Below are positions 26,516 to 51,486 of a DNA stretch of 52,936 bases, piece after piece. Where the stretch lies: sequence record MT764207.1; one strand, given 5' to 3'. This DNA is from Escherichia phage JEP7. Position numbers and translations under genes: made by a program. The notes under the pieces were generated by a model that saw only the letters and a list, made by a program, of their open reading frames with translations, was not told the origin of the DNA and made no database searches. Within the stretch, counting starts at the first letter, position 1; the number at the start of each line of letters is the position of its first letter.

Positions 26516-28483
26516 TTAGTGCGCCTCTGCCCAGTTACTTTCTATCTTAGCATCAGTAAGAACAGGTACACGAAGCGGTAGCACAGTTTCCATGACCCGT
26601 ACGAAATCGTAGAATCCATCTTCTGCTTGCTTACCAGTTGGTAGAGAGAAGTTAAGCTCATCGTGTACCGTCAGGCGAGGCACGCCAATCACGTCGAAGT
26701 AACCGTCTTCATACCCTTTCAGCATTGCAGACTTCATCTGGTCTGCTGACGACCCTTGCAGCACTCGGTTGATTGCTTTGTGGGTGTCTGCCAGTTTAAT
26801 GTTTGGGCCATACTCCTGACGTGCTTCTTCAAATGGCAAAGGCGTCTTCCCGAATCCACCACGTTTTGGGACCCATTTGTTGAACCACGTTTTCCGGCCC
26901 ATAAAGGTTTCTACATACCCCTGGCTATAACATAAATCTTCATAATGCTTCATGGTAGCACCAATGAATGGTGCACCCTGATGGTACGCCTTCAGAACAG
27001 GTTCTGCTTCTTCAGGTGTCATTGCTAACTTACGGGCAAGAGCATTAAGCATCATGCCGTACAACAAACCAAAGTTGATGGTCTTAGCCGGTTTACGCTC
27101 TATAACGTGACCTGAGGCTTCCTTGATAATATCGACCATAACATTGTGGTAATCTGCTTCCGGGTTAGCCGCGAAAATTGCTCGTAACTCATCAGCGCCC
27201 GGGCCGACTGCAAAATGCGCCATGAATCTATATTCAATTTGGGCGTAGTCTGCGGATCCCCATCGGTGTCCGACATCCGGTACGAAACAAGCACGAAGGA
27301 GTGGTCCCAGTATTTTGTGTCTAGACGGTATATTCTGCAGATTAGGGTCAGATGAGCTAAACCGACCACTAACGGTTCCACCGTCATCACCGCGCATTTG
27401 ATGGAATTGACCGTGAAGGAAGCCATTTGTATTCATCCCCAATATATAGCCACGAATAAACGTGGACTGGATTTTTTCATAAGACTTAATCTCAGACACC
27501 AGTTCCGCAAACGGATGGTGCAAGCCTGCTAAGAAGTCCGCTGTAAACGACGGATTACCCGCCGCTGTTTTGAAGTACTCCAGACCTAAATGGTCAAATG
27601 CAAGTGCTAAATCAGGACCGGAGTTAACGTTAATGTTAAAGCCAATCTGGTCTTTAATCTGCTGGTGCATTTTCCTTATTTCAGCGCTAAGCGTATCATC
27701 CGCCTCTTTGGCTTTGTCAAGGTCAACACGCACACCTGCAAAACGCATCTTAAGCATTAATGGAATGAGCTTGCACTCCATATAGAATACGTCTGTTAAA
27801 CACCAGCGACTTAACAAAGGCCACTGGGCTTTGATAATGTGTATTGGTAAGTCGGCGTCAGATTCAGCGTAGTAACCCACAAGACGAGGAGGTGTTTTGT
27901 AGATGTACTTTCTGGCTTCACCTGTTGGCTTACAACCATAAGCATCTGAAATCCATTGGTACATCTCAGCTGAGTCTTTACCTTCGCCTACATACTTTCG
28001 TCCAAGTCCTTCAAGTGCAACACGCGCGCCTGGGTCGAGTAATGCTTCCGCGAATTGTACATCCATGCACAATCCTTTGACTTCCACGCCTTCTGCTGCA
28101 AGCCAGCCCAAGTCATATGTGATGTTAGCACCGACTTTAACTTGGTTAGGTCGCGAGAGTTCGAGCCGAAGCCAACCAAGTACTTCCTCAGCTGGAAGGT
28201 TATCCTCTTCGCCGAGCTCGTGTCTGATTGGGTAGTAAGCCTTGAAGCCATTGTCCGTAGCGATACTAACTCCAACGATATGACCTTCCCTCCTGGCCCA
28301 ACCACTACCATTTGCATCCATCCCTGGGTCATATGTTTCACAGTCAAGACCGATAATCTTCGCAGAAGACAAATCCGGGTAATGCGCGCGCGGCCGCCAT
28401 CCAGTATCCCTGACGTATGGTATAGGACGGTTGATAGGTTTAACATTCTTTGCACCTTCAAAGCTATCGAATAAAAAGCTCAT
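26516..28483 (-). CDS. DNA polymerase, family A (PolI-like) with 3'-5' exonuclease domain
   Basis: 655 aa; polymerase motif A (DYAQIEYR), motif B (KTINFGLLYGM), motif C (TVHDELNF); N-terminal exonuclease-like region (GLDCETYD). Confidence 0.9.
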   Translation of the reverse strand: MSFLFDSFEGAKNVKPINRPIPYVRDTGWRPRAHYPDLSSAKIIGLDCETYDPGMDANGSGWARREGHIVGVSIATDNGFKAYYPIRHELGEEDNLPAEEVLGWLRLELSRPNQVKVGANITYDLGWLAAEGVEVKGLCMDVQFAEALLDPGARVALEGLGRKYVGEGKDSAEMYQWISDAYGCKPTGEARKYIYKTPPRLVGYYAESDADLPIHIIKAQWPLLSRWCLTDVFYMECKLIPLMLKMRFAGVRVDLDKAKEADDTLSAEIRKMHQQIKDQIGFNINVNSGPDLALAFDHLGLEYFKTAAGNPSFTADFLAGLHHPFAELVSEIKSYEKIQSTFIRGYILGMNTNGFLHGQFHQMRGDDGGTVSGRFSSSDPNLQNIPSRHKILGPLLRACFVPDVGHRWGSADYAQIEYRFMAHFAVGPGADELRAIFAANPEADYHNVMVDIIKEASGHVIERKPAKTINFGLLYGMMLNALARKLAMTPEEAEPVLKAYHQGAPFIGATMKHYEDLCYSQGYVETFMGRKTWFNKWVPKRGGFGKTPLPFEEARQEYGPNIKLADTHKAINRVLQGSSADQMKSAMLKGYEDGYFDVIGVPRLTVHDELNFSLPTGKQAEDGFYDFVRVMETVLPLRVPVLTDAKIESNWAEAH

Positions 28484-29508: not shown

Positions 29509-30393
29509 TTATACGGCCATTTGTAGTTTGATGTTTGGCATTGGTTTGTACTTCTCAACCATTGGCGTAACATCGGCAGGAGTGAAGTCAAACACTGACA
29601 CGTCGTAAATTGCGTTAATGTCAGGACGACCTTCAAAGTTAGTGTCCAGTGTAGTATCAGAATTGCTTACGATACGTTGCAGGAAAATCTTTGCAGCATC
29701 GATATGATTCTGATAGATGTGATAGTCACCCAGCGTAACAGTCATATCACCTACCCCAGTACCCAGCTCAGCAGCAATGGTAATCTGCAGCATTTGATGC
29801 AACAGAATATCGTGAGGCAGACCCAGAATAACATCCGCGCTACGCATGTGGAACATCAGCTCTAATTCATTGCGGTTGTTAATGAACAGCTGAAAACCAT
29901 GGTAACAAGGCGGAAGGGCCATGGCGTCCATCTCTTGTGGGTTCCATGCCGTAATGTATGCCCGGCGGTCAGTAGGCTTAACCTTCAGCGTTTCAATAAC
30001 ATCTTTAAGCTGGTTAGTAAGAACACCATTCTTGTAGAATGGCTTAATCCATTGCACGCCGTACACAGGACCTAAGTCACGGTTGTCTGGCGTACCCCAG
30101 CGTTTGTTTGCGTCCTGCAGGTTACCTTCCCACCAGTTGCAGCCAAAGCCTTTGAGCGTGTCGACGTTTGAAATACCGTTGATAAAGCAGTAAAGCTCAG
30201 CAGCAACAGCTTTGATGTTAACAGGTTTAAACACCGGCACCATCAGTTTGTTGTCGTTAAAAGCCAGCTTAAATGCTGTACCAAAACAACGGCGTGTACC
30301 AACACCTGTACGGTCTACAACATCCTCGCCTTTACGCAGGATAAAAGAAATGATGTCGCTGTAAAGAGAATCGACAGTGCTATATGTTTTCAT
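29509..30393 (-). CDS. thymidylate synthase-fold enzyme with Asn-to-Asp at the pyrimidine specificity position (putative dCMP C5-hydroxymethylase or -methylase)
   Basis: 294 aa; by-eye alignment to E. coli ThyA across DRTGVGT, DLGPVYGVQW, RRAYITAWNP, ALPPC (catalytic Cys163, codon 29905-29907), RSADVILGLPHD, GDYHIYQNH; residue matching ThyA Asn177 is Asp195 (codon 29809-29811). Confidence 0.85.
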   Translation of the reverse strand: MKTYSTVDSLYSDIISFILRKGEDVVDRTGVGTRRCFGTAFKLAFNDNKLMVPVFKPVNIKAVAAELYCFINGISNVDTLKGFGCNWWEGNLQDANKRWGTPDNRDLGPVYGVQWIKPFYKNGVLTNQLKDVIETLKVKPTDRRAYITAWNPQEMDAMALPPCYHGFQLFINNRNELELMFHMRSADVILGLPHDILLHQMLQITIAAELGTGVGDMTVTLGDYHIYQNHIDAAKIFLQRIVSNSDTTLDTNFEGRPDINAIYDVSVFDFTPADVTPMVEKYKPMPNIKLQMAV

Positions 30394-30986
30394 TAAAACA
30401 GTTCCTTTTGAGCCGGGTTAACGTGTGCGTCGATGATGGCCTGGATGTCAGGTGCTTTCCATCCTTCAGGCTTAACAATATCCTGACCAGACTTATGCTT
30501 ACTGTTGCTTGCATCAGGCTTAGCACGTTCTTTCGCCATGTTAGCAACTTGTACCGCATCCCATGCTGCGTCGAGTGGCCAGTTGTTGTTTGCACACCAG
30601 GTAATCAGGTGGATAATTAACTGGGCCAGACGGTCGCAATGAGTGTCTTCAGTATCCTTAACGTATACAATAAGGCCGTCAGCATCGAAGCGGTCCATAA
30701 ATCCGCATGGCGTAGTTAACAGAATCGGATACTCAAATTCGTTGGTGAACCATGCAGTCTGGTCATACAGATATAACGTACCTGCAGCAATGTAAATTAA
30801 ATCTACAATACCGTCTAAGAATCCAGCTTTATCGCCGTCCTTCTTAGCTTGTTTAATTTCTTCCATCTCCTCAATAAGACGGTCATAGCGAAGCTTGAAC
30901 TCAGGTTTACCGCCTTGACTAACAGGCTTGAGGTCAAACTTCTCATGAAAAGCGGTAACGCCTGCAGCAATTTTACTGAATCGCAT
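30393..30986 (-). CDS. MazG-like nucleoside triphosphate pyrophosphohydrolase (putative)
   Basis: 197 aa; acidic helical segment RLIEEMEEIKQAKKDGDKAGFLDGIVDLIYIAAG resembling the EExxE...D metal-binding helices of all-alpha NTP pyrophosphatases; AGGAG RBS. Confidence 0.45.
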   Translation of the reverse strand: MRFSKIAAGVTAFHEKFDLKPVSQGGKPEFKLRYDRLIEEMEEIKQAKKDGDKAGFLDGIVDLIYIAAGTLYLYDQTAWFTNEFEYPILLTTPCGFMDRFDADGLIVYVKDTEDTHCDRLAQLIIHLITWCANNNWPLDAAWDAVQVANMAKERAKPDASNSKHKSGQDIVKPEGWKAPDIQAIIDAHVNPAQKELF

Positions 30987-31371
30987 TTCGTAACTCCTTA
31001 CAAACAGTTTCGATAAACTTACGCTTAATTTCTGTAGACCAGATAATATGACGAGCCTGTTCTAAAGTGTCCCAACGTTCTTTACCCACAGGAAAGGGAA
31101 CAATGAAAAGGCCGGTACGGGATATGCGCTTGATAAACGGGAATTTACAGCGCATGGTTGTTTCAAACTTGATAAAGTTGGTTTGCACTTCGCGTGTAAA
31201 CTTGACCTTATCAAATTCATGTTCAAGAGTTTGAGCAAGGTTGCATACTTCCTGGAAAGAAGATGTGGGTAAATAATCTTCGCGGCCGACGGTGTTCACG
31301 TAGTCGATTTGGCCTTCGAGTCGAAGTATCCAAATCCTGTAATAAGCTTCAGCAACACGTTGTAGGTTCAT
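30973..31371 (-). CDS. hypothetical protein
   Basis: 132 aa; GAGGAGAG RBS; first gene downstream of promoter at 31398-31426. Confidence 0.3.
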   Translation of the reverse strand: MNLQRVAEAYYRIWILRLEGQIDYVNTVGREDYLPTSSFQEVCNLAQTLEHEFDKVKFTREVQTNFIKFETTMRCKFPFIKRISRTGLFIVPFPVGKERWDTLEQARHIIWSTEIKRKFIETVCKELRNAIQ

Positions 31372-31397
31372 TGTATCTCTCCTCTAAAAGATAACTT

Positions 31398-31426
31398 ATT
31401 ATACCACATCACTCTCTAGTGGTAAA
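31398..31426 (-). promoter_or_regulatory. promoter with TTTACC -35 and extended -10 (TGgTATAAT), CCAC/GTGG dyad in spacer
   Basis: minus-strand reading CTTTACCACTAGAGAGTGATGTGGTATAAT; 17-nt spacer. Confidence 0.5.
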
Positions 31427-31453
31427 GCACTTTTTACGCTTCTGGTAAAAATA

Positions 31454-31482
31454 AAAAGGACCAGCGTTAACTGGTCCTTTTG
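31454..31482 (-). terminator. rho-independent terminator (minus-strand orientation)
   Basis: GGACCAG-CGTTAA-CTGGTCC stem-loop with A-run on + strand, i.e. hairpin followed by TTTTTATTTTT on the minus strand. Confidence 0.6.
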
Positions 31483-32047
31483 GCAGGGTGGCGTAAGGAG
31501 ATACAAGGCATCATAACTATGCAACCAGGCAGCGCATATGAGATTGGCCAAAAGATTTACCATTTTAATCCCCGCGACGAGACGAAAGGAGGTGCCATCA
31601 AGTAGCCAATCACATATGCGTTACTTGCTGTGTGCTCTCACCGCGGAAAGTATAGAGCGTTGCACTTATCACACCGATGGAGTGGCAAAAGCACACAGCA
31701 AGTACAACCTTAGTTGTGGTGTCTTAGCACCTGAGTTATTGTGGATAACCTGCACCCGACGGGTGTCAAAAAGATACGCCAAAACACCACAACTAAAATT
31801 GTGACCGCCGTCTACACCAGGCGCCTGGGGTCAAGGTAGCGAGCCAATACCCTTTTCAGCGTCGGAGGAATCGAACCTCACACATCACGGCTTTTACCAA
31901 ATCTCGGTCAGCGAGCAGAATTGAACTGCATTCACTGGACACCCTCACTGTTTCAACACACCAGGCTTAATTGATTGTTGATAAGAAGAGAGATGTAAGG
32001 ATGTCCATTGAATGCACCTCCGTAGAGGTGCGTTCAGATCAGCGCTA
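31483..32047 (-). ncRNA. candidate structured non-coding RNA / long 3' UTR
   Basis: about 570 nt without a credible ORF between the stop of 32048-32515 and the terminator; contains nested inverted repeats (CTTAGTTGTGGTGT ... ACACCACAACTAA enclosing CACCC-GAC-GGGTG), a 12-bp palindrome CCAGGCGCCTGG and a tRNA T-arm-like GAGGTTCGATTCCTC on the minus strand. Confidence 0.3.
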
Positions 32048-32515
32048 TTATTCAGCAACTTCTTCGTTGTCGCCTTCGATCGCGCCAGCCAGTTTAGCAG
32101 CTTCAGCTTTAGCAGCTTCTGCTTTCTGGCGAGCTTTTTCAGCTTTCTCTTCAGCTTTGCGAATCTGCTCAGCAGCTTTCGCTTCGGCTTTTTCAGCTTT
32201 GATGCGAGCACGCTCTTCAGCTTTACGCTGTTTTTCAGCGGCTTTAGCAGCATCGCGTTCTGCTTTAGCGGTATCAACACGCTTAGCCAGAACTTTACCA
32301 GTGGCTTTACGCCAGTAGGTCAGCTGGGAAGAAACAGTACCACGGGACATTTCGGTAGTGGCAACAACTTCGTCCATAACGTCAGAGCTGGACTTGCCTT
32401 CTTCATGGGCTTTATCAGCCAGGTCCCATACGTAACGTGCGCCAGTACCAGCTGCCGGATACAGTACGCCGTTAACTTCTTCTTTACCAGTTACAAAAGT
32501 CAGTTTCTCGCTCAT
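32048..32515 (-). CDS. Lys/Ala/Glu-repeat protein (histone H1-like, putative DNA-binding)
   Basis: ATG 32515 with GAGGA RBS; C-terminal third is KAAEK/AEKA low-complexity repeats; codon choice typical of highly expressed genes. Confidence 0.4.
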   Translation of the reverse strand: MSEKLTFVTGKEEVNGVLYPAAGTGARYVWDLADKAHEEGKSSSDVMDEVVATTEMSRGTVSSQLTYWRKATGKVLAKRVDTAKAERDAAKAAEKQRKAEERARIKAEKAEAKAAEQIRKAEEKAEKARQKAEAAKAEAAKLAGAIEGDNEEVAE

Positions 32516-32621
32516 AATTTTTTCCTCGTCTACAGGGCTTAATGTTTGTTCGTTACGTGAGTTAATATACGTCATTTAAAAGAGTGTGTAAACACCTTTT
32601 TTAAACTTTTTTCATTAGTGT

Positions 32622-32849
32622 CTAGAAAGGCACATCATAGTCAAAAAGTTTACATCCGGAAGACAGGACTGCCGGCGGTGGTGTTTTGCCTCCGGATAAT
32701 AGACAACCTCCTGCCTGAAAACTACGGCAGTTCGCACAGCTCATATCCTGCAGGTATATAATAAGCTGCCGGCGAACATGCCGTGGTAAAGCTTTAGCTT
32801 GGGTAGCTACCCGTTCAAATAGTTCTCTGTCATCGAGCGCCATAGCCAT
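32622..32849 (-). CDS. hypothetical small Cys-containing protein
   Basis: 75 aa ORF overlapping the helicase 3' end; weak call. Confidence 0.25.
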   Translation of the reverse strand: MAMALDDRELFERVATQAKALPRHVRRQLIIYLQDMSCANCRSFQAGGCLLSGGKTPPPAVLSSGCKLFDYDVPF

Positions 32850-34500
32850 TCCCCCAGTCGTAGTTCATGATTTGTGGGTAGGGTCGTTTAATCCATACCT
32901 TGATGCGCTTAGGAATAGCCAGCTCACCCTTACGGCGAATAAACTCATCGCATGTTTCAGGCGGTTCGGTTCCTGCAGCATTACGCCACCAGGCATCTGC
33001 CATTTGCTTAGCATTACCATGGGCCTCAATATTTACCCAAGTTGTGTACACTTCCAGGTTTGAATAATACACAACCTTTATACTGTCAGGCCGTCCTTGC
33101 TTCTGGAATAAAGAATAGTTTACCAGCGTAACATCCTTATCCACAACACGAAGCTGACCGTTAGTCATTACCTCTTCTTCTGATGAAGTGAAGGCAATAG
33201 CAGGTCCGTTAACTGTAAATTCAAATTCATGTCCGCACATCGGATATACACCATTCTCGTCTGGCGTACTTCCTTTAGCCGGATGTTTACATGTACGAGC
33301 AGCATAACCACTTACCTGGTGGCAGATAGGGCACTCTTTACCGCCAGGTGTTTTCTCTGACCGTTTCTTTTTCTTCTTACCAAGACGTGGCGGAACAGCC
33401 GGGTCATCAATAGGACCAAGGTCAATGGTGTTAGATGTGAAGTCCATAACAAGACAGTCATGCTTACCAGGCGCTGTACGTAATCCTCGACCGAGTATCT
33501 GCACCCACAAGGCAACAGACGTGGACGGGCGCAAGATGCCGAGCATATCAATTTCAGGATAGTCAAAGCCTGTTGTCAATACGTTTACGTTTACGCATAC
33601 CCTGGCACGTCCGCTTGTAAACTCTTCCAGTGCGGCTTCACGTTCTTTCTTTGTAAGACCGCCATGCACAACTACAGTCTGCCACCCGCGCAGATTAAAT
33701 TCGTCTGCTATGTTGTGGGCGTGCTCAACACTTGTGGCAAATACAAGAACGTGGTTCCTGTCTTTACCGTAGTGCATCATCTCACGAATAGCCGCGACTG
33801 TTATACTATGCTGGTTGGCTACCTTCTCGAGCTCTGACGGGATATAGTCACCCATCCTTTCGCCAACATTACTGGTGTCAATCTTGGTTAACACTTTCTT
33901 GTTGACCAGGCGCGACAGGAAGCCTTCATTTACCAGTCGGGTGAATGCGTCAGGTGTTGTAAGGTCATAGCAGATGTCGGTAAATATACCACAGTCAAGC
34001 AAGTGACCACCTGCCAGTCGATACGGAGTTGCTGTAAGGCCTGTTACCTTTACCTTAGGATTAAGCTCTTTGAAATGAGCAATAACCTTACGGTATGTTG
34101 TTTCAGACTTCTCAGGAACGAGATGGGCTTCGTCAATGAATATAAGATTGAACTTACCTGCTTCTTCCAGGTTCTTAATAATCGACTGTACTGACGCTAC
34201 AACTATACGACCTGAAAAGTCTTTGTGTCCTGCACCTGAAGAGTAGATTGATACTGGTGCTTGTGGCCAGTGGCGAACAATTGCTTTGGCGTCTTGTTCT
34301 ACCAGCTCCTTGACGTGTGTCAATATAAGAATGCGCTGACGTGGATAGCTGGTAAGAATATCCTTCATCAACATACCAAGCACAGGTGATTTACCTGAAC
34401 CTGTTGGCATGACAATAAGTGGGTTACCACTATAAGAATTGAAGTACGACCACCAAGCGGTCACAGCTTCTTGTTGATACCAGCGAGCTTCAAAAGCCAT
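32830..34500 (-). CDS. superfamily 2 DEAD/DEAH-box DNA helicase with C-terminal zinc-ribbon
   Basis: 556 aa; motif I VMPTGSGKS, motif II FIDEAH, motif III-like LTATP; C-terminal CPICH...C...C cluster. Confidence 0.8.
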   Translation of the reverse strand: MAFEARWYQQEAVTAWWSYFNSYSGNPLIVMPTGSGKSPVLGMLMKDILTSYPRQRILILTHVKELVEQDAKAIVRHWPQAPVSIYSSGAGHKDFSGRIVVASVQSIIKNLEEAGKFNLIFIDEAHLVPEKSETTYRKVIAHFKELNPKVKVTGLTATPYRLAGGHLLDCGIFTDICYDLTTPDAFTRLVNEGFLSRLVNKKVLTKIDTSNVGERMGDYIPSELEKVANQHSITVAAIREMMHYGKDRNHVLVFATSVEHAHNIADEFNLRGWQTVVVHGGLTKKEREAALEEFTSGRARVCVNVNVLTTGFDYPEIDMLGILRPSTSVALWVQILGRGLRTAPGKHDCLVMDFTSNTIDLGPIDDPAVPPRLGKKKKKRSEKTPGGKECPICHQVSGYAARTCKHPAKGSTPDENGVYPMCGHEFEFTVNGPAIAFTSSEEEVMTNGQLRVVDKDVTLVNYSLFQKQGRPDSIKVVYYSNLEVYTTWVNIEAHGNAKQMADAWWRNAAGTEPPETCDEFIRRKGELAIPKRIKVWIKRPYPQIMNYDWGNGYGAR

Positions 34501-34526
34501 TTATCATCTCCTCATTAACTTTATAT

Positions 34527-34555
34527 ATTATACCACTTCCTTGTGGTAAAGTATA
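34527..34555 (-). promoter_or_regulatory. promoter with extended -10 (TGgTATAAT) and CCAC/GTGG dyad
   Basis: minus-strand reading CTTTACCACAAGGAAGTGGTATAAT upstream of helicase gene. Confidence 0.45.
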
Positions 34556-34558
34556 CTT

Positions 34559-35437
34559 TTATTTTAAGGAAAGTTTAACGGGCTTCTCATCCTGCGGGAA
34601 GACATCAGCAGGGCGATAATCATCACAAGCTGCTAATTGCTCTTCGAGTGTTTCGAGTTCTTTCTGGTGCTTGTTGCAGTACCACACTTTGCCCTGGAGC
34701 GGTTTACTGTAATGGCAGGTTCTGCAGTTCCTGTCTGGCATTGCTCCTTTGTGGCACAGGTGATGGTATTCGCACATCCCTGGTTTGCACTCCCACCAAA
34801 TAGGCGATTCAGAAATCTTCGGCATATCCAAACCAGATTCCGCATATACAACAGCCTCCGCTTTACTCAGTTGTATGTCGCTTTCCAGTAAGTCAATCTC
34901 GACCACCTCAAAATACATCTCGTCGGTGTTCTTGTTGATTGCGATGTACACAGCTTGATTCAGCTTAAGCTTCCGCATGTATACCTGCATCTGGGCATAG
35001 TGTACCGGCTTACTTGCTTTAACAGACTTGAGCTTGACTAACTCTTTAAACGACTTATCGCCATGCGTCTTGAATTCAGCAAGTGCCCATACGCCTTTGT
35101 ATTTAATTACACAGTCACAAGACCCAGAGAAGATGTCATTGAATTCGTGTATGCGCCATTGCTTACCAGTCTTGGGATTGACGTCCAGCACCTCATCACA
35201 TACGGAACGAAGCCACTTTACAATTCTGCTTTCTTCAAGGTTACCTCGCTCAAACAGACGAAGTTGCTTAGCTGTAAACTTCTCCTTGAACGACCAGTGC
35301 AGAACGTGCCAAAGATAGCGATAGCAGTTGTGCCCTATCTGCGATGCTCCAAGATGCCCGCGTCGTTCTTCTCTTTCGTGGGCTTCGACTATCTTGATGT
35401 CAATACGTTTCTGCAGGTCGTCAAACGGACTTGGCAT
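34559..35437 (-). CDS. PD-(D/E)XK exonuclease (Cas4/RecB-nuclease-like) with C-terminal Cys cluster
   Basis: ATG 35437 with GAGGAG RBS; D...EFK motif (DCVIKYKGVWALAEFKTHGD); C-terminal CKPGMC...C..C....C cysteine cluster. Confidence 0.5.
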   Translation of the reverse strand: MPSPFDDLQKRIDIKIVEAHEREERRGHLGASQIGHNCYRYLWHVLHWSFKEKFTAKQLRLFERGNLEESRIVKWLRSVCDEVLDVNPKTGKQWRIHEFNDIFSGSCDCVIKYKGVWALAEFKTHGDKSFKELVKLKSVKASKPVHYAQMQVYMRKLKLNQAVYIAINKNTDEMYFEVVEIDLLESDIQLSKAEAVVYAESGLDMPKISESPIWWECKPGMCEYHHLCHKGAMPDRNCRTCHYSKPLQGKVWYCNKHQKELETLEEQLAACDDYRPADVFPQDEKPVKLSLK

Positions 35438-35906
35438 TGTTAAACTCCTCAACGCTGAATTCATCGTACACAATATTATGAGCCCACAAATGAGCGACGG
35501 CGTTTGCCATACTGTCTTTCCATTTGGATTGTGAAGCTGTATGAGCCAATGCAACTACACGAACCAGGTTAAGGTTGGCTATCAGCATATCTGCACAATG
35601 TTCGCACGGCGGGTAGGTTATGTAGATGGTAACCGGGCCTAAAGAAGGAGTGTCTAACTCACTCCTTATATTAGCTAAGGTATTTATCTCGCTATGAATA
35701 GTTAGAGCGTTCTTGAGGCTATTAGGCACTATTCTTATAGAGTCTAGCTGCGTAGGTAAGCCGTTATATCCAGTGGAAATAATACGCTTGTTCTGGTCCA
35801 CAAGAACACTACCGACTTGACGTTTCGGGTCCTTTGACCAGCTTGCAACTTCACAAGCTATGCGCATAAACCGCTTGTCCCACTTGTCCATCTTCTTCTT
35901 TTGCAT
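35421..35906 (-). CDS. dCMP deaminase (cytidine/deoxycytidylate deaminase family)
   Basis: 161 aa; zinc-binding motifs HSEINT and PCEHC. Confidence 0.85.
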   Translation of the reverse strand: MQKKKMDKWDKRFMRIACEVASWSKDPKRQVGSVLVDQNKRIISTGYNGLPTQLDSIRIVPNSLKNALTIHSEINTLANIRSELDTPSLGPVTIYITYPPCEHCADMLIANLNLVRVVALAHTASQSKWKDSMANAVAHLWAHNIVYDEFSVEEFNNAKSV

Positions 35907-46197: not shown

Positions 46198-46398
46198 TCA
46201 CTCTATCATTACCTGAACTACTATTATACACTCTTTATTGAAGCGAGTAAACACTTTTCCACCATTAGTGCGTTTAGCCCCAGATTTTAGAGCTGACTGG
46301 CACCAGATATGCCACTCCTCAACTGTCAAGAATTTTTGCTCAGCTTTGGGTGGCAATCCATGGGCAAGGTCTACCGTCGTAAATTTGACTAGTGGCAT
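46198..46398 (-). CDS. hypothetical protein
   Basis: 66 aa from ATG 46398 (track ORF starts at a GTG at 46401). Confidence 0.3.
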   Translation of the reverse strand: MPLVKFTTVDLAHGLPPKAEQKFLTVEEWHIWCQSALKSGAKRTNGGKVFTRFNKECIIVVQVMIE

Positions 46399-46787
46399 CA
46401 CTTGACCTCAAACTTTGACTCGTCGTATTCCGGATCAGTCACGTCCCGGGTCGCACAATTTTTGATTGCTTCCCAGTAGCGTTGGGCATCATCACCATCG
46501 ACGTAAACCGTCCAGTGGCCATAACCACCTTCAAATCTGTCCCAGGCTTGTTCCCAGACTTTGCCATCTTCCAGCTTGTACCAAGTTGGACGACTGTCAA
46601 ACTCACGAATTGGATGGTACCCCATCAAGGGATTCATCAGGTCGATAATGTCTTCCCGACTAATCTCCTGGTTCTCCCACAACACCGTCATGAATTGCTC
46701 AAACTTGAAGGCGTTTGGCAGAACTTTGAGTACTTTACCGTCACAATATACGGTATAGGTGCCATCTTCGCATTTTGCACTGTACAT
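46398..46787 (-). CDS. hypothetical protein
   Basis: 129 aa from ATG 46787 with AGGAGAG RBS; preceded by conserved leader and dyad. Confidence 0.35.
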   Translation of the reverse strand: MYSAKCEDGTYTVYCDGKVLKVLPNAFKFEQFMTVLWENQEISREDIIDLMNPLMGYHPIREFDSRPTWYKLEDGKVWEQAWDRFEGGYGHWTVYVDGDDAQRYWEAIKNCATRDVTDPEYDESKFEVK

Positions 46788-46855
46788 GTTTCTCTCTCCT
46801 ATTGATATAATTTCAATCATGAACTATCACAACTTTGGATAGTTCATTGTTGAAA

Positions 46856-47029
46856 CTATACTAACTTTGTTGCGATCTGAATTGTCAGCCGGAAATCTTC
46901 CATCAAGTTATCAAACTCTTTGGAACCACCAACAGCATCAGATATTTGATCTTTCACAATTTGGGCATTTGATTCCAGTAATTCAATCAGGTGCGCCAAT
47001 TCGTCTTCAGTCAATTTCAAATCTTTCAT
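46856..47029 (-). CDS. small acidic helical protein, paralog family member A
   Basis: 57 aa from ATG 47029; N-terminus MKDLKLTEDELAHLIELLE similar to the products of 47289-47447 and 48144-48317. Confidence 0.35.
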   Translation of the reverse strand: MKDLKLTEDELAHLIELLESNAQIVKDQISDAVGGSKEFDNLMEDFRLTIQIATKLV

Positions 47030-47283
47030 AATGCATCCACCCAAGCCATAACTTTTGCCAGTCTTACAACGTCTTCATGGTCCCGCTCGCCATCAGAAAA
47101 TTCGCTGGCGATGATATCCATAATTGACGCCAGATTCATGTTGATGATGTAGGCGTGTTGGCGCACTTCATCAATTCCTGAATCTATCACCAGTTCCGCA
47201 AATTCTTGTGAACCTTCATCCCATTCAGCCCAATACTGCTCAGCATAAAAGTCCAGTTCTTTTTTCATCTCAATATCAGTCAT
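47026..47283 (-). CDS. highly acidic small protein
   Basis: 85 aa, many D/E and aromatic residues; AGGAG RBS. Confidence 0.35.
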   Translation of the reverse strand: MTDIEMKKELDFYAEQYWAEWDEGSQEFAELVIDSGIDEVRQHAYIINMNLASIMDIIASEFSDGERDHEDVVRLAKVMAWVDAL

Positions 47284-47288
47284 TTTGA

Positions 47289-47447
47289 TTACTCCTCAGA
47301 ACCTGAAAATTTGTCATCAATGGACTCAACAATATAATCAAGAGTTGAAGTGTGAGAACTATCAGAAAAAGTGCCCATCTTCTCCAGCTCAATCATCATA
47401 TCCCGTAAAGCCATTGCCTGGTCTTTGGTCAGTTTAATTTTAAGCAT
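47289..47447 (-). CDS. small acidic helical protein, paralog family member B
   Basis: 52 aa from ATG 47447 with CAGGAGAG RBS; MLKIKLTKDQAMALRDMMIELE. Confidence 0.35.
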   Translation of the reverse strand: MLKIKLTKDQAMALRDMMIELEKMGTFSDSSHTSTLDYIVESIDDKFSGSEE

Positions 47448-47511
47448 GTTTCTCTCCTGTTGATTGTGAATAATTTCAATTGATGGCACTACTTGAGTGC
47501 CATCTCAAAAA

Positions 47512-49319: not shown

Positions 49320-49805
49320 ATGAAAATTGTTCAATTAGAGCCATATCCGCCTCAATTGGCTATCGTTTGCAGCGAAAAAGAGCACGAAGAGCTCCAAAAA
49401 CTGATGGATTTGCCTGATTTTGGCAACTGGAATGACCGAGAAACGCGTACTGCATCTACCTTTACGTTCTCTCGCGTTAACTATCCGTACCTGTTAATCG
49501 TCGTCGAGCTGTACCACCCGGACGACCTGAAGTACAACACCATTTCCCACGAAGGCATTCACGTAATGTCGTCGCTGATGAACTATGTCGGCCTTAAATA
49601 CGACCCAGAAAACGATGAATGGTACGCATATCAGCATGATTTCATCGTAAATGCCATTTGTAAGGCCCATGACGAGTACATTGAGCGCCAAAAAACGCCA
49701 AAAACTAAGCCAAAAATCGAAACAGGCAACCATCCTGTGATACTGCCACAAGACGTTATGAACTCGCTTTTGACTGACACTACTGGGGACTTTTTAGGTG
49801 ATTGA
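49320..49805 (+). CDS. HExxH-motif protein (putative zinc metallopeptidase-like)
   Basis: about 161 aa from ATG 49320 (track starts at a GTG at 49308); HEGIH motif (NTISHEGIHVMSSLM). Confidence 0.3.
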   Translation: MKIVQLEPYPPQLAIVCSEKEHEELQKLMDLPDFGNWNDRETRTASTFTFSRVNYPYLLIVVELYHPDDLKYNTISHEGIHVMSSLMNYVGLKYDPENDEWYAYQHDFIVNAICKAHDEYIERQKTPKTKPKIETGNHPVILPQDVMNSLLTDTTGDFLGD

Positions 49806-50307
49806 AATACTCCGTAAGTATTTTCGCTATGAGCCAGACACAGGCTTATTGTACAGAATACGACAGGCTAAAACAGGTAAACGAGTCGATTTGAGCCAGC
49901 CTGTAGGCACGGAACATAGCGGTTATCTGTTTTGCAGTGTACCAGAAGGCATTCGTACAAAGCCTGTGCACGTAATCTGCTATGCTTTACAAACTGGCGA
50001 ACTACCTGAAGTAGTTGACCATAAAGATGGTAACGGGCTTAACAACAAATGGTACAACCTTCGTAACGGTACTCAAACGCAGAACCGGTATAACTCAAAA
50101 GTCAAATCAAGTAACACAACAGGCGTAAAAGGCTTGTTTGAGTACGCACCAAAAGGTCGTAAACCTCTTTGGAAAGCCAGCATTAAAGTAGATGGAGTCA
50201 ATCATCAGAAGTATTTCCCTTATACTGATAACGGTAGGCTGGAAGCTATTGAGTGGCTTGACGAACAAAGACATCAACATGGCGAATTCGCCAACAAAGG
50301 AAATTAA
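49798..50307 (+). CDS. HNH homing endonuclease with AP2-like DNA-binding domain
   Basis: 169 aa; HNH core VVDHKDGNGLNNKWYNLRNGTQTQN; C-terminal GVKGLFEYAPKGRKPLWKASIKVDGVNHQKYFPYTDNGRLEAIEW resembles AP2 domain. Confidence 0.75.
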   Translation: MIEILRKYFRYEPDTGLLYRIRQAKTGKRVDLSQPVGTEHSGYLFCSVPEGIRTKPVHVICYALQTGELPEVVDHKDGNGLNNKWYNLRNGTQTQNRYNSKVKSSNTTGVKGLFEYAPKGRKPLWKASIKVDGVNHQKYFPYTDNGRLEAIEWLDEQRHQHGEFANKGN

Positions 50308-50308
50308 T

Positions 50309-50983
50309 GTGATAAACCTAATCTTCGCAATGGGCCAAAATGGGGAATTCGGGTTATCTCCGGAGTTTATGAAGCATCAGGTTGACTCGTGCAAGACCAT
50401 GGAAGAGGTTCGTGCGCTTCCTAAGTCTGGTCTGCCCTGGAAATGTCCGTCAGACATGCTCTTTTTCAGGACTATGACTAATTCAGTTGCGACAGAACCA
50501 GGCTATAATGCGTATCAGCAACTACGTGGACAGTTCCCAAGTGACCAGTTGCGAAACATGATAGCAGATGTAACGGTAAAAATGGTCGGACATAGTGTAC
50601 TGTTAGCCGGTCGTAACACGTATATGACTATGAGTCTGCCTATGTCAGCCCACAGAATACTGCTGCCGGTATCTCGCCAGATTATGGCTTCAGAAGGCTA
50701 CAATAATTTGGGTGAGATGGCAGCAGACCTTGAATCCAGAGGTACTGACGTCTGGATTGTAGGCGGTGCCGAGTTGATACTTTCGGCCCTTGAAGAGCAT
50801 GCAAAAGACTTACTCCGTATCGACAACATGTTTATCAGTACGATCAAGCAATCAGGTCCAAGTGATATTTTAATGGATCGTAGCAAATTAATGATGTACA
50901 TTGATAGCGACTTCACTTATAATGATGAATATGTTGATAACAAACAAGTTCTGATACAACGGTACAGGAGTTTACACGAATGA
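50309..50983 (+). CDS. dihydrofolate reductase
   Basis: GTG 50309 with AAAGGA RBS (in-frame ATG also at 50279); DHFR-like order of motifs: INLIFAMGQNGEFG, LPW, DMLFF, VLLAGRNTY, VWIVGGAELI. Confidence 0.75.
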   Translation: MINLIFAMGQNGEFGLSPEFMKHQVDSCKTMEEVRALPKSGLPWKCPSDMLFFRTMTNSVATEPGYNAYQQLRGQFPSDQLRNMIADVTVKMVGHSVLLAGRNTYMTMSLPMSAHRILLPVSRQIMASEGYNNLGEMAADLESRGTDVWIVGGAELILSALEEHAKDLLRIDNMFISTIKQSGPSDILMDRSKLMMYIDSDFTYNDEYVDNKQVLIQRYRSLHE

Positions 50984-51486
50984 ACATCATAATCGAGGGT
51001 CCCGATAATGCTGGTAAAAGTACACTTATTGAGTTCCTTAAATCTCATACTGGCCGCAATGTTATTCATAATACTGTTGATAAAGACCCCGAATCGGTCA
51101 TGGCTAAACAGGCCAAAGAAAACGCGTTGGAAGGCAATTGCATTTATGACCGTAGCGCTGTTATATCTGAGTATATCTATTGTCTGGTTCTTCAACGTAC
51201 GCCTGTCATCAATATTAATGTATCACATGTAGCAGATATGTGTGACAACGCCATCGTTATCTTTTGTATGCCGCCTGTTGAAAAGGTACTGGCAACTACA
51301 AAAGACGAAATGCCTGGTGTTGTGGAAAATCTTGAGGCGTTATACAATCAGTATGACAACCTCATTGACGAGCTGGTTATGATGAGTAAGCAGTTCTTCA
51401 TTTACGACTGGACTGTTGAAGAAGACGGTCCTGAAGCAGTTCTCGAATACATCAACGAACGTATTAATAAGGAGTGGAACAAATGA
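50980..51486 (+). CDS. P-loop deoxynucleoside monophosphate kinase (thymidylate-kinase-like)
   Basis: 168 aa; N-terminal Walker A IIIEGPDNAGKST; CAGGAG RBS; adjacent to DHFR. Confidence 0.55.
   Translation: MNIIIEGPDNAGKSTLIEFLKSHTGRNVIHNTVDKDPESVMAKQAKENALEGNCIYDRSAVISEYIYCLVLQRTPVININVSHVADMCDNAIVIFCMPPVEKVLATTKDEMPGVVENLEALYNQYDNLIDELVMMSKQFFIYDWTVEEDGPEAVLEYINERINKEWNK

Follow-up and report, generated by a model that had tools for sequence, protein, structure and literature searches.

Introduction

The described system closest to the one considered here is that of phage Xp12, in whose DNA all cytosine is 5-methylcytosine (5mC) and whose ThyA homolog is, by experiment, a synthase of 5-methyl-deoxycytidine monophosphate (5-methyl-dCMP) (Yang et al., bioRxiv 2024). 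In Xp12, deamination of 5-methyl-deoxycytidine triphosphate (5-methyl-dCTP) supplies dTTP, and no thymidylate synthase (TS) of the dUMP type is needed (Yang et al., bioRxiv 2024). The same study reports that a deaminase adjoins a TS gene in 70% of cases on cytosine-modified contigs versus 6% on unmodified ones, that the commonest deaminase neighbors are TS, MafB19-deam, PRA-PH, and DNA_pol_A with its exonuclease, that five of the seven associated TS homologs tested make 5-methyl-dCMP, and that many of the deaminases prefer 5mC. The pathways of PaMx74 and of the metagenomic contig encoding the deaminase mSCD-B5 are of the same type. Phage T4 offers a second model, consisting of a dCTPase (gp56), a dCMP hydroxymethylase (gp42), a deoxynucleoside monophosphate (dNMP) kinase (gp1), and the Cd, Td, and Frd proteins, with an overall logic in common with the genes described below.

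Here we consider five nucleotide-metabolism genes in the 52,936-nucleotide sequence of Escherichia phage JEP7 (MT764207.1), the whole of which we call the window: a ThyA-like gene (minus strand, 29509-30393), a MazG-like gene (minus strand, 30393-30986), a deaminase gene (minus strand, 35421-35906), a dihydrofolate reductase (DHFR) gene (plus strand, 50309-50983), and a P-loop kinase gene (plus strand, 50980-51486). We think it likely that these genes form a pre-replicative pathway of the Xp12 kind that replaces cytosine with 5mC. Judged from the sequence, the JEP7 gene set would be a previously unrecognized case of this known system, with its chemistry predicted.

Five nucleotide-metabolism genes in JEP7

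Searches with hidden Markov models (HMMs) from Pfam and PHROG agree for each gene. The ThyA-like gene, predicted to encode a dCMP C5-methyltransferase (5-methyl-dCMP synthase), matches PF00303 (E 2e-62); the MazG-like gene, a predicted pyrimidine dNTPase, matches Pfam PRA-PH (30.6 bits, cut-off 21.3) and PHROG 671, 'nucleotide pyrophosphohydrolase' (E 2e-24); and the deaminase, a zinc enzyme of the dCMP deaminase family, matches PF00383 (76 bits, cut-off 25) and also PF14437 (MafB19-deam). The DHFR is divergent (PF00186, 30 bits, cut-off 25; PHROG 316, E 5e-26), and the kinase, a P-loop deoxynucleos(t)ide kinase that is a candidate 5-methyl-dCMP/dTMP kinase, matches PHROG 761, 'thymidylate kinase' (E 3e-27). 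These are strong matches, the five open reading frames (ORFs) are not chance ORFs, and the positions and families proposed for them in an earlier annotation made without database searches (the sequence-only reading) hold up. That annotation had also noted a one-nucleotide overlap between the MazG-like and ThyA-like genes, which is seen on the minus strand in the junction ...CTG TTT TAATG AAA..., where the last A of TAA is the first A of ATG, at position 30393. The DHFR and kinase genes share 4 nucleotides.

By megablast the window belongs to the genus Rosemountvirus, with Escherichia phage vB_EcoM_PiR (OM313461.1) as its top match. The genus also holds the Salmonella phages BP63, LPSEYT, PA13076, and SE13, and its sister genus is Loughboroughvirus (ZCSE2, S144).

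Substrate of the ThyA-like protein

Whether TS acts on dUMP or dCMP is known to be set by Asn177, in place of which the T4 dCMP hydroxymethylase carries Asp (Lee et al., NAR 2026; MetaGPA papers); residue positions of ThyA homologs are given throughout in E. coli ThyA numbering. A single change, N177D in the E. coli enzyme or N229D in that of L. casei, is reported to make TS a methylase of dCMP (Hardy & Nalivaika 1992; Liu & Santi 1992), and in the MetaGPA work positions 177 and 147 best separate cytosine-modified from unmodified phage contigs. Aligned with E. coli ThyA and solved TS structures, the JEP7 protein has Asp at Asn177, Tyr at His147, and His at Phe176, its LGLPHD aligning to LGLPFN of E. 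coli ThyA. It retains R21, E58, W80, W83, Y94, L143, C146, R166, S167, D169, H207, and Y209, as well as ...MAV at its C-terminus, the end that closes the active site in TS. The protein thus has the TS fold and Cys146, Arg166, Asp169, Tyr94, and His207 in common with canonical ThyA (EC 2.1.1.45), but not Asn177 or His147. Like the engineered N177D and N229D enzymes, it is a TS scaffold (~34% identity to bacterial TS) with an Asn-to-Asp change, to which the natural protein adds H147Y, F176H, and an 8-residue insertion after Trp80.

These substitutions extend across a clade of 31 protein clusters of at least 50% identity from phage-sized contigs of 45-54 kb, which we call the PiR clade, the ThyA-like protein being the same in PiR and JEP7. 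Asp177 is present in 29 of the 31 members, and Tyr147 and His176 in every one. Below the clade, identity falls to 37% or less and the matches are canonical bacterial TS, with Asn177 in 89 of 89; His147 occurs in all 13 canonical matches tabulated, and Asn177 together with His147 in all 24 canonical sequences of the neighbor-joining (NJ) alignment. Neither a second ThyA homolog nor ThyX was found in the window by tblastn with E. coli ThyA and a scan for the ThyX RHR...S motif. These residues and their distribution set the ThyA-like protein apart from ordinary thymidylate synthases and argue that its active site has been switched to cytosine nucleotides.

Probable methylation rather than hydroxymethylation

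According to Lee et al. (NAR 2026), a bulky hydrophobic side chain at position 143 keeps water out and favors methyl transfer, whereas this position is Asp or Glu in the T4-type hydroxymethylases and the RB69/DLP3 5-hydroxy-dCMP synthases. The JEP7 protein and 11 of 11 aligned clade members have Leu143, in contrast to this T4/RB69-type acidic residue. T4 gp42 has the equivalent of Asp177, as in JEP7, but aligns Asp at 143 and is without the TS C-terminal tail, both Leu143 and the tail being kept in JEP7. Because Leu143, Trp80, and the full TS C-terminus are retained, the protein points to reductive methylation, yielding 5-methyl-dCMP, over hydroxymethylation, as the sequence-only reading had favored.

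That preference had been drawn from the presence of a DHFR. Methylation oxidizes tetrahydrofolate to dihydrofolate and hydroxymethylation does not, according to the established chemistry of TS and gp42. A DHFR is indeed encoded, and homologs of it occur in exactly 60 phage records, equal to the number of records with the Asp177 ThyA clade. The argument is supportive rather than decisive, since host ThyA also yields dihydrofolate. The DHFR of T4 is explained by its separate true TS (Td), whereas JEP7 has only one ThyA homolog.

No elaboration beyond the methyl group is suggested, since a Pfam scan of 20 further ORFs, many ORFs remaining unannotated, returned only DUF7173 and no TET/5mYOX, glycosyltransferase, carbamoyltransferase, or DNA methyltransferase domain. 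Unlike T4-type systems, with their companion glycosyltransferases, none of the 30 JEP7 ORFs scanned contains a Pfam domain of this kind, nor is one found in the RefSeq annotation of BP63.

The MazG-like protein, deaminase, and kinase

The MazG-like protein fits the all-alpha NTP pyrophosphohydrolase superfamily (MazG/HisE/dimeric dUTPase) by HMM, by its conserved acidic metal-binding residues, and by a four-helix all-alpha fold. It is 37% identical over 92 amino acids to its Xp12 counterpart (E 8e-11), with the conserved acidic residues in common. We infer that it acts on dCTP, possibly also on dUTP, to give the monophosphate, the sole basis for dCTP being that the gene adjoins that of a dCMP-specific enzyme in PiR and Xp12 alike.

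In the deaminase, the HSE (HxE) and PCEHC (PCxxC) zinc-binding motifs can be read in the translation. The protein is 33% identical over 160 amino acids to the Xp12 deaminase (E 4e-23), closer than to any solved canonical dCMP deaminase, and it is kept in all relatives examined. Its best solved relative is 7FH4, the PBCV-1 dCMP/dCTP deaminase, a structure also described as the nearest to that of mSCD-B5, a 5mC-selective deaminase (Yang et al., bioRxiv 2024). Like the 5mC-selective deaminases, it is of the dCMP_cyt_deam_1/MafB19 type and encoded together with an Asp177 ThyA, PRA-PH, and PolA. Selectivity for 5mC is polyphyletic and without a known sequence rule (Yang et al., bioRxiv 2024), so it is not assignable to the JEP7 enzyme by sequence. 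Because no dUMP-type synthase is encoded, and given the homology to the Xp12 deaminase, the enzyme probably makes thymidine nucleotides from 5-methyl-dC nucleotides, as mono- or triphosphates. The dCMP deaminase of the sequence-only reading is thus retained as a family assignment, with a probable role in dT supply from 5-methyl-dC rather than as a T4-style feeder of TS.

The kinase had been proposed as a P-loop dNMP kinase, and by sequence it differs from canonical Tmk: it falls below the cut-offs of Pfam Thymidylate_kin (17.7 against 27), dNK (20.8 against 27), and TIGR00041 (22 against 83), with agreement at the P-loop only. BLAST comparison with T4 gp1, E. coli Tmk, and the Xp12 genome gave nothing past the P-loop, a sequence search of the PDB gave nothing useful, and its homologs form 22 clusters that all lie inside this phage group. 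An AF2 model (pLDDT 90.6) has as its top Foldseek match YorR of SPbeta (3KB2, E 5e-7, TM 0.70), followed by dAK, dCK, and Tmk. The modeled fold is consistent with a deoxynucleos(t)ide kinase, and we regard the protein as a candidate 5-methyl-dCMP/dTMP kinase. The proposal is borne out at the level of the modeled fold, though not by a family-level match to Tmk or T4 gp1.

Comparison with Xp12 and T4 and origin of the enzyme

In Xp12 (MT664984.1), a single operon holds a 'HAD hydrolase', a ThyA with Asp177, a dCMP deaminase, and a DHFR. The product annotated 'hydrolase (HAD superfamily)' (within 46207-47455) is PRA-PH/MazG-like (55.7 bits) and has an extra C-terminal domain. The parts list held in common with JEP7 comprises an Asp177 ThyA with a residue other than His at 147, a MazG/PRA-PH gene directly upstream, a deaminase, and a DHFR; in both phages the set adjoins a family A polymerase and a helicase, and the predicted logic is alike, one methylation step feeding both 5mC and T. 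The JEP7 neighborhood, with PolA, clamp, ThyA(Asp), and MazG-like genes followed further along by helicase, exonuclease, and deaminase, holds all of the domains reported as the commonest deaminase neighbors. The two systems differ in arrangement, the Xp12 genes forming one operon whereas those of JEP7 are dispersed, with 5 kb to the deaminase and 20 kb to the DHFR and kinase, which are on the opposite strand. They also differ in active-site signature (N143/P147/Y176/E264 in Xp12, L143/Y147/H176/V264 in JEP7). Xp12 has no homolog of the P-loop kinase of the JEP7 group, and it has an HhH-GPD gene and a ribonucleotide reductase, both lacking in the JEP7 group, whose hosts are Enterobacteriaceae and whose virion is that of a myovirus. 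The HhH-GPD gene lies upstream of the Xp12 MazG-like gene, encodes a homolog of base-excision glycosylases (30.4 bits), and has no JEP7 counterpart; its product would plausibly fit a 5mC genome prone to T:G mismatches.

Identity of the PiR clade is ~34% with canonical TS, ~26% with the Xp12 clade, and ~19% with T4 gp42 (21% for the JEP7 protein paired with gp42), and no PiR-clade protein is among the 120 best matches of a search with the Xp12 ThyA. Rooted on gp42, an NJ tree unites the PiR clade with canonical TS and leaves the Xp12 clade outside in 84 of 100 bootstraps, while the PiR and Xp12 clades pair in 13 of 100; as a simple NJ tree with a long-branch root, it is weak evidence. This grouping, together with the differences at positions 143, 147, 176, and 264, suggests that the Asp177 switch probably arose separately in the PiR and Xp12 clades.

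The sequence-only reading had taken T4 as its model. Its scheme of a predicted dNTPase, a C5-modifying ThyA homolog, and a candidate kinase is supported, but the closest model is Xp12, with 5mC, and not T4. The JEP7 MazG-like protein has no BLAST similarity to gp56, nor has the kinase to gp1.

Relatives with restriction data

The gene order deaminase, Cas4-like exonuclease, helicase, a further gene (x), MazG-like, ThyA(Asp177), clamp, and PolA is kept in S144 and fHy-Eco03, whose ThyA proteins are 73.5% and 58% identical to that of JEP7, and the order from deaminase to PolA is also kept in three metagenomic relatives with ThyA proteins of 50-56% identity. L143, Y147, H176, and D177 are present in the ThyA of S144, fHy-Eco03, and these three metagenomic relatives.

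DNA of S144 grown on three hosts was cut by only two of nine enzymes, SspI and PacI, both with sites of A/T only; the authors suggested a cytosine modification, found no gene for it, and read ThyA, deaminase, DHFR, and Tmk as a dTTP pathway (S144 paper, 2020). DNA of fHy-Eco03 was cut only by ScaI, and the authors' verdict was an 'unknown modification' (2021). We found no later paper that resolves either modification, and papers on the Rosemountvirus phages and relatives swi3, vB_SenM-1, the SPLA phages, SE13, PA13076, ZCSE2, and AV127 report no restriction digests. For comparison, the 5mC DNA of Xp12 is cut partially by ScaI and left uncut by NcoI, NotI, SphI, AflII, Sau3AI, SmaI, XhoI, KasI, SacII, and PspOMI, and ScaI does not cut T4gt DNA, which contains 5-hydroxymethylcytosine (5hmC) (Flodman et al., 2020). 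The S144 and fHy-Eco03 patterns fit complete 5mC better than 5hmC, because ScaI cuts fHy-Eco03 and, partially, Xp12 but not T4gt, although such a comparison is suggestive only.

A predicted 5mC pathway

Taken together, these genes suggest a pathway in five steps. The MazG-like pyrophosphohydrolase would hydrolyze dCTP, and perhaps dUTP, to the monophosphate, both removing the canonical triphosphate and feeding the next enzyme. The Asp177 ThyA homolog would then methylate C5 of dCMP from methylene-tetrahydrofolate, giving 5-methyl-dCMP and dihydrofolate; for this step the specificity residue is seen directly, and the product is predicted because Leu143, Trp80, and the TS C-terminus are retained. 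The phage DHFR would regenerate tetrahydrofolate, and the P-loop kinase, with host NDP kinase, would raise 5-methyl-dCMP to the triphosphate, which the family A polymerase encoded at the end of the gene string would have to accept. Finally, the deaminase would turn part of the 5-methyl-dC nucleotide pool into dT nucleotides, such that one methylation supplies both 5mC and T. The resulting 5mC DNA would be expected to resist most type II restriction enzymes. The cytosine-replacement pathway built on a C5-modifying ThyA homolog, first proposed in the sequence-only reading, holds on every computational test, namely the residues at 177 and 147, Leu143 with the C-terminus, the DHFR distribution, and the resistant relatives.

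A broader version of this proposal would have every cytosine as 5mC across Rosemountvirus, Loughboroughvirus, fHy-Eco03-like phages, and the metagenomic relatives, with a methylase that arose independently of that of Xp12, all phage thymidine derived from 5-methyl-dC nucleotides, and avoidance of GATC (described below) covering sites that 5mC leaves open. We offer it tentatively, being close to undecided and leaning slightly against it as a whole.

Alternative explanations

Several observations weigh against a 5mC pathway of the Xp12 kind. The ThyA-like protein lies outside the Xp12/Mesyanzhinovviridae ThyA lineage, and because the PiR and Xp12 ThyA clades are unrelated, the assignment of function relies on the logic of the active site, not on orthology. 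The Xp12 enzyme, a proven 5-methyl-dCMP synthase, aligns Asn at position 143, making the Leu143 rule imperfect, and a product call from that rule alone was downgraded for this reason. Two clade members on metagenomic contigs of 1.6 and 1.0 kb (P0013 and P0020, 55% and 53% identity) have Asn177 with His176 and Tyr147; these could represent forms intermediate between a TS and a dCMP methylase, natural revertants, or mistakes of assembly. By fold, the MazG-like protein is nearest to dUTPases, and neither Xp12 nor T4 has a homolog of the kinase. The deaminase gene shares a replication module with the ThyA-like gene but is 5.0 kb from it, beyond the ±3 kb window of MetaGPA. The restriction data come from relatives outside Rosemountvirus with 58-74% ThyA identity, the panels do not separate cytosine from guanine modification, and the call between 5mC and 5hmC rests largely on ScaI, compared across laboratories and enzyme versions. 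Lastly, some Rosemountvirus members are recorded on McrBC-carrying hosts derived from E. coli K-12, an objection weakened by the marginal activity of McrBC on Xp12 DNA in vitro.

One alternative keeps dCMP as the substrate and changes the product, which could be 5-hydroxymethyl as in T4, 5-hydroxy as in RB69/DLP3, or a new C5 modification, perhaps elaborated by unannotated proteins. Asp177 tells only of the dCMP substrate, Xp12 breaks the Leu143 rule, and more than half of the early genes are without a recognizable domain. The authors of the fHy-Eco03 study found, moreover, that known methylation sensitivities did not account for the resistance, a remark that does not exclude 5mC because vendor methylation tables omit complete 5mC substitution. 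We nevertheless consider another C5 product unlikely. The JEP7 protein combines Leu143 with a complete TS C-terminus, where position 143 is Asp or Glu in the known hydroxymethylases and hydroxylases and gp42 has no tail. A DHFR, unneeded for hydroxymethylation, is co-distributed with the clade, the 20 further ORFs hold no glycosyltransferase, TET, or carbamoyltransferase domain, and ScaI cuts the DNA of fHy-Eco03, and partially that of Xp12, but not the 5hmC DNA of T4gt.

A more conventional account is an ordinary dTTP supply, with a deaminase producing dUMP, a canonical TS, a DHFR, a thymidylate kinase, a MazG-like protein serving as dUTPase or in house-cleaning, and unmodified DNA. The ThyA-like protein scores as a thymidylate synthase by TIGR03284, an NCBIfam equivalog model (172 bits, cut-off 108), with all catalytic and folate-binding residues kept, it is nearer to canonical TS (~34%) than to Xp12 or T4 gp42, and the MazG-like protein has dUTPases as its nearest folds. 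The genome is also more A+T-rich than those of its hosts, whose typical GC content is higher than the 45.9% of JEP7. This is the S144 authors' view of the gene set, and the annotations in GenBank and in the papers on S144 and ZCSE2 agree with it. We judge this account rather improbable, since Asp177 and Tyr147 are kept across the clade while Asn177, which selects dUMP, is found in 89 of 89 canonical matches, and since the DNA of two relatives with the same enzyme resists most enzymes with G/C in their sites.

The Asp177 ThyA and the deaminase might instead serve only as an alternative route to dTMP, leaving little or no 5mC in the DNA and the resistance of the relatives otherwise caused. With no dUMP-type synthase, dT would have to be made via 5-methyl-dC in any case, and the MazG-like protein could equally hydrolyze 5-methyl-dCTP. 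Such a route on its own seems very unlikely: no other candidate modification gene was found in the 20 further ORFs, the resistance patterns of the two relatives match that of Xp12 5mC DNA, and the same gene set in Xp12 gives complete replacement. Finally, modification of guanine or another purine, unconnected with the nucleotide-metabolism genes, would fit the fact that every enzyme failing on S144 and fHy-Eco03 has G besides C in its site, but it is hardly credible given that no DpdA, QueC/D/E, or FolE-like domain occurs in the ORFs scanned or in the BP63 RefSeq annotation and that fHy-Eco03 DNA is cut at the G-containing ScaI site (AGTACT).

Implications

If the 5mC pathway is confirmed, it would name the unexplained DNA modification of S144 (2020) and fHy-Eco03 (2021), in a group of widely used Salmonella and E. 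coli biocontrol myoviruses. The 'thymidylate synthase' auto-annotation of ~60 deposited genomes is then probably wrong in substrate. To our knowledge, no 5mC-substituted phages growing on laboratory hosts of E. coli and Salmonella have been known before; these phages could provide a convenient source of fully methylated DNA on such hosts and a genetic system for 5mC-dependent defenses, for example, McrBC, McrA, and type IV enzymes. The ThyA-like protein would be an apparently independent natural case of a TS turned dCMP methylase via Asn177Asp, and the deaminase would be a new candidate for the family of 5mC-selective deaminases used in methylome sequencing.

Genome context and other observations

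The ThyA-like gene belongs to a minus-strand string that ends with the gene of the family A DNA polymerase (PolA, 26516-28483; ORF and annotation). A promoter-like site (31398-31426, minus strand; TTTACC-17-TATAAT with an upstream TG, 10 of 12 matches) would drive orf132, the MazG-like and ThyA-like genes, the clamp, and PolA, and BP63 carries an annotated promoter at the equivalent place. Directly upstream of it is a terminator-like perfect 12-bp stem-loop with a T-run (31454-31481, minus strand), a hairpin that marks a transcription-unit boundary within the replication module. Across the promoter scan as a whole, sites are no commoner than in shuffled sequence and the site at 31398-31426 is weak alone, so the operon structure rests mainly on the gene overlaps and the BP63 annotation.

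The first gene after the promoter-like site, orf132 (30973-31371, minus strand; PHROG 36727, no Pfam match), shares 14 nucleotides with the start of the MazG-like gene and is conserved in S144 (77%) and fHy-Eco03 (43%). It was rejected as a core member of the pathway, being missing from more distant relatives that keep the MazG-like, ThyA(Asp), and deaminase genes. Between the helicase and the MazG-like/ThyA-like operon sits an ORF for a Lys/Ala/Glu-rich, TolA-like low-complexity protein (32048-32575, minus strand; PHROG 28664), and the Xp12 helicase gene also adjoins a 'TolA protein' gene.

An HNH homing endonuclease gene (49798-50307, plus strand; PF13392, PHROG 99) lies immediately upstream of the DHFR gene, with none at the equivalent place in BP63, where gp14 and gp15 are adjacent. 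In fHy-Eco03 a different HNH gene is inserted between deaminase and exonuclease, and the homing endonucleases of both phages thus adjoin nucleotide-metabolism genes. GenBank notes for fHy-Eco03 (MW602648.1, 7399-8930) record that its ThyA-like, MazG-like, polymerase, helicase, and exonuclease proteins were detected in purified virions by liquid chromatography-tandem mass spectrometry (LC-MS/MS). Replication enzymes in virions are unusual, and their presence may reflect carry-over rather than packaging.

GATC is about five-fold rarer than expected in the window (32 occurrences versus 158 under a second-order Markov model), by far the strongest avoidance among 4-bp palindromes, with CTAG second at 0.61. 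Xp12 DNA, although fully 5mC, remains open to cutting by MboI, and 5mC would therefore not shield GATC from MboI/DpnII-type enzymes. Alternatively, the avoidance could be related to Dam or MutH.

The window and OM313461.1 are both 52,936 bp long and 97.1% identical, with 1,551 differing positions and no indels, and the annotated coding sequences of OM313461.1 coincide in coordinates with the JEP7 ORFs. The differences are patchy: the ThyA-like, MazG-like, orf132, clamp, and single-stranded DNA-binding protein (SSB) genes are identical, while 21 of 225 residues differ in the DHFR, 16 of 169 in the kinase, and 54 of 710 in a tail protein. Between JEP7 and Salmonella phage triss, DHFR identity is 99.6%. 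This pattern looks like a mosaic, or like a differently called consensus of one draft assembly. A further record, PP583539.1 ('Listeria phage 220426122051', host Listeria monocytogenes), is 96.9% identical over 7 kb to this Gram-negative myovirus, and its Listeria host label is probably an error or the result of contamination.

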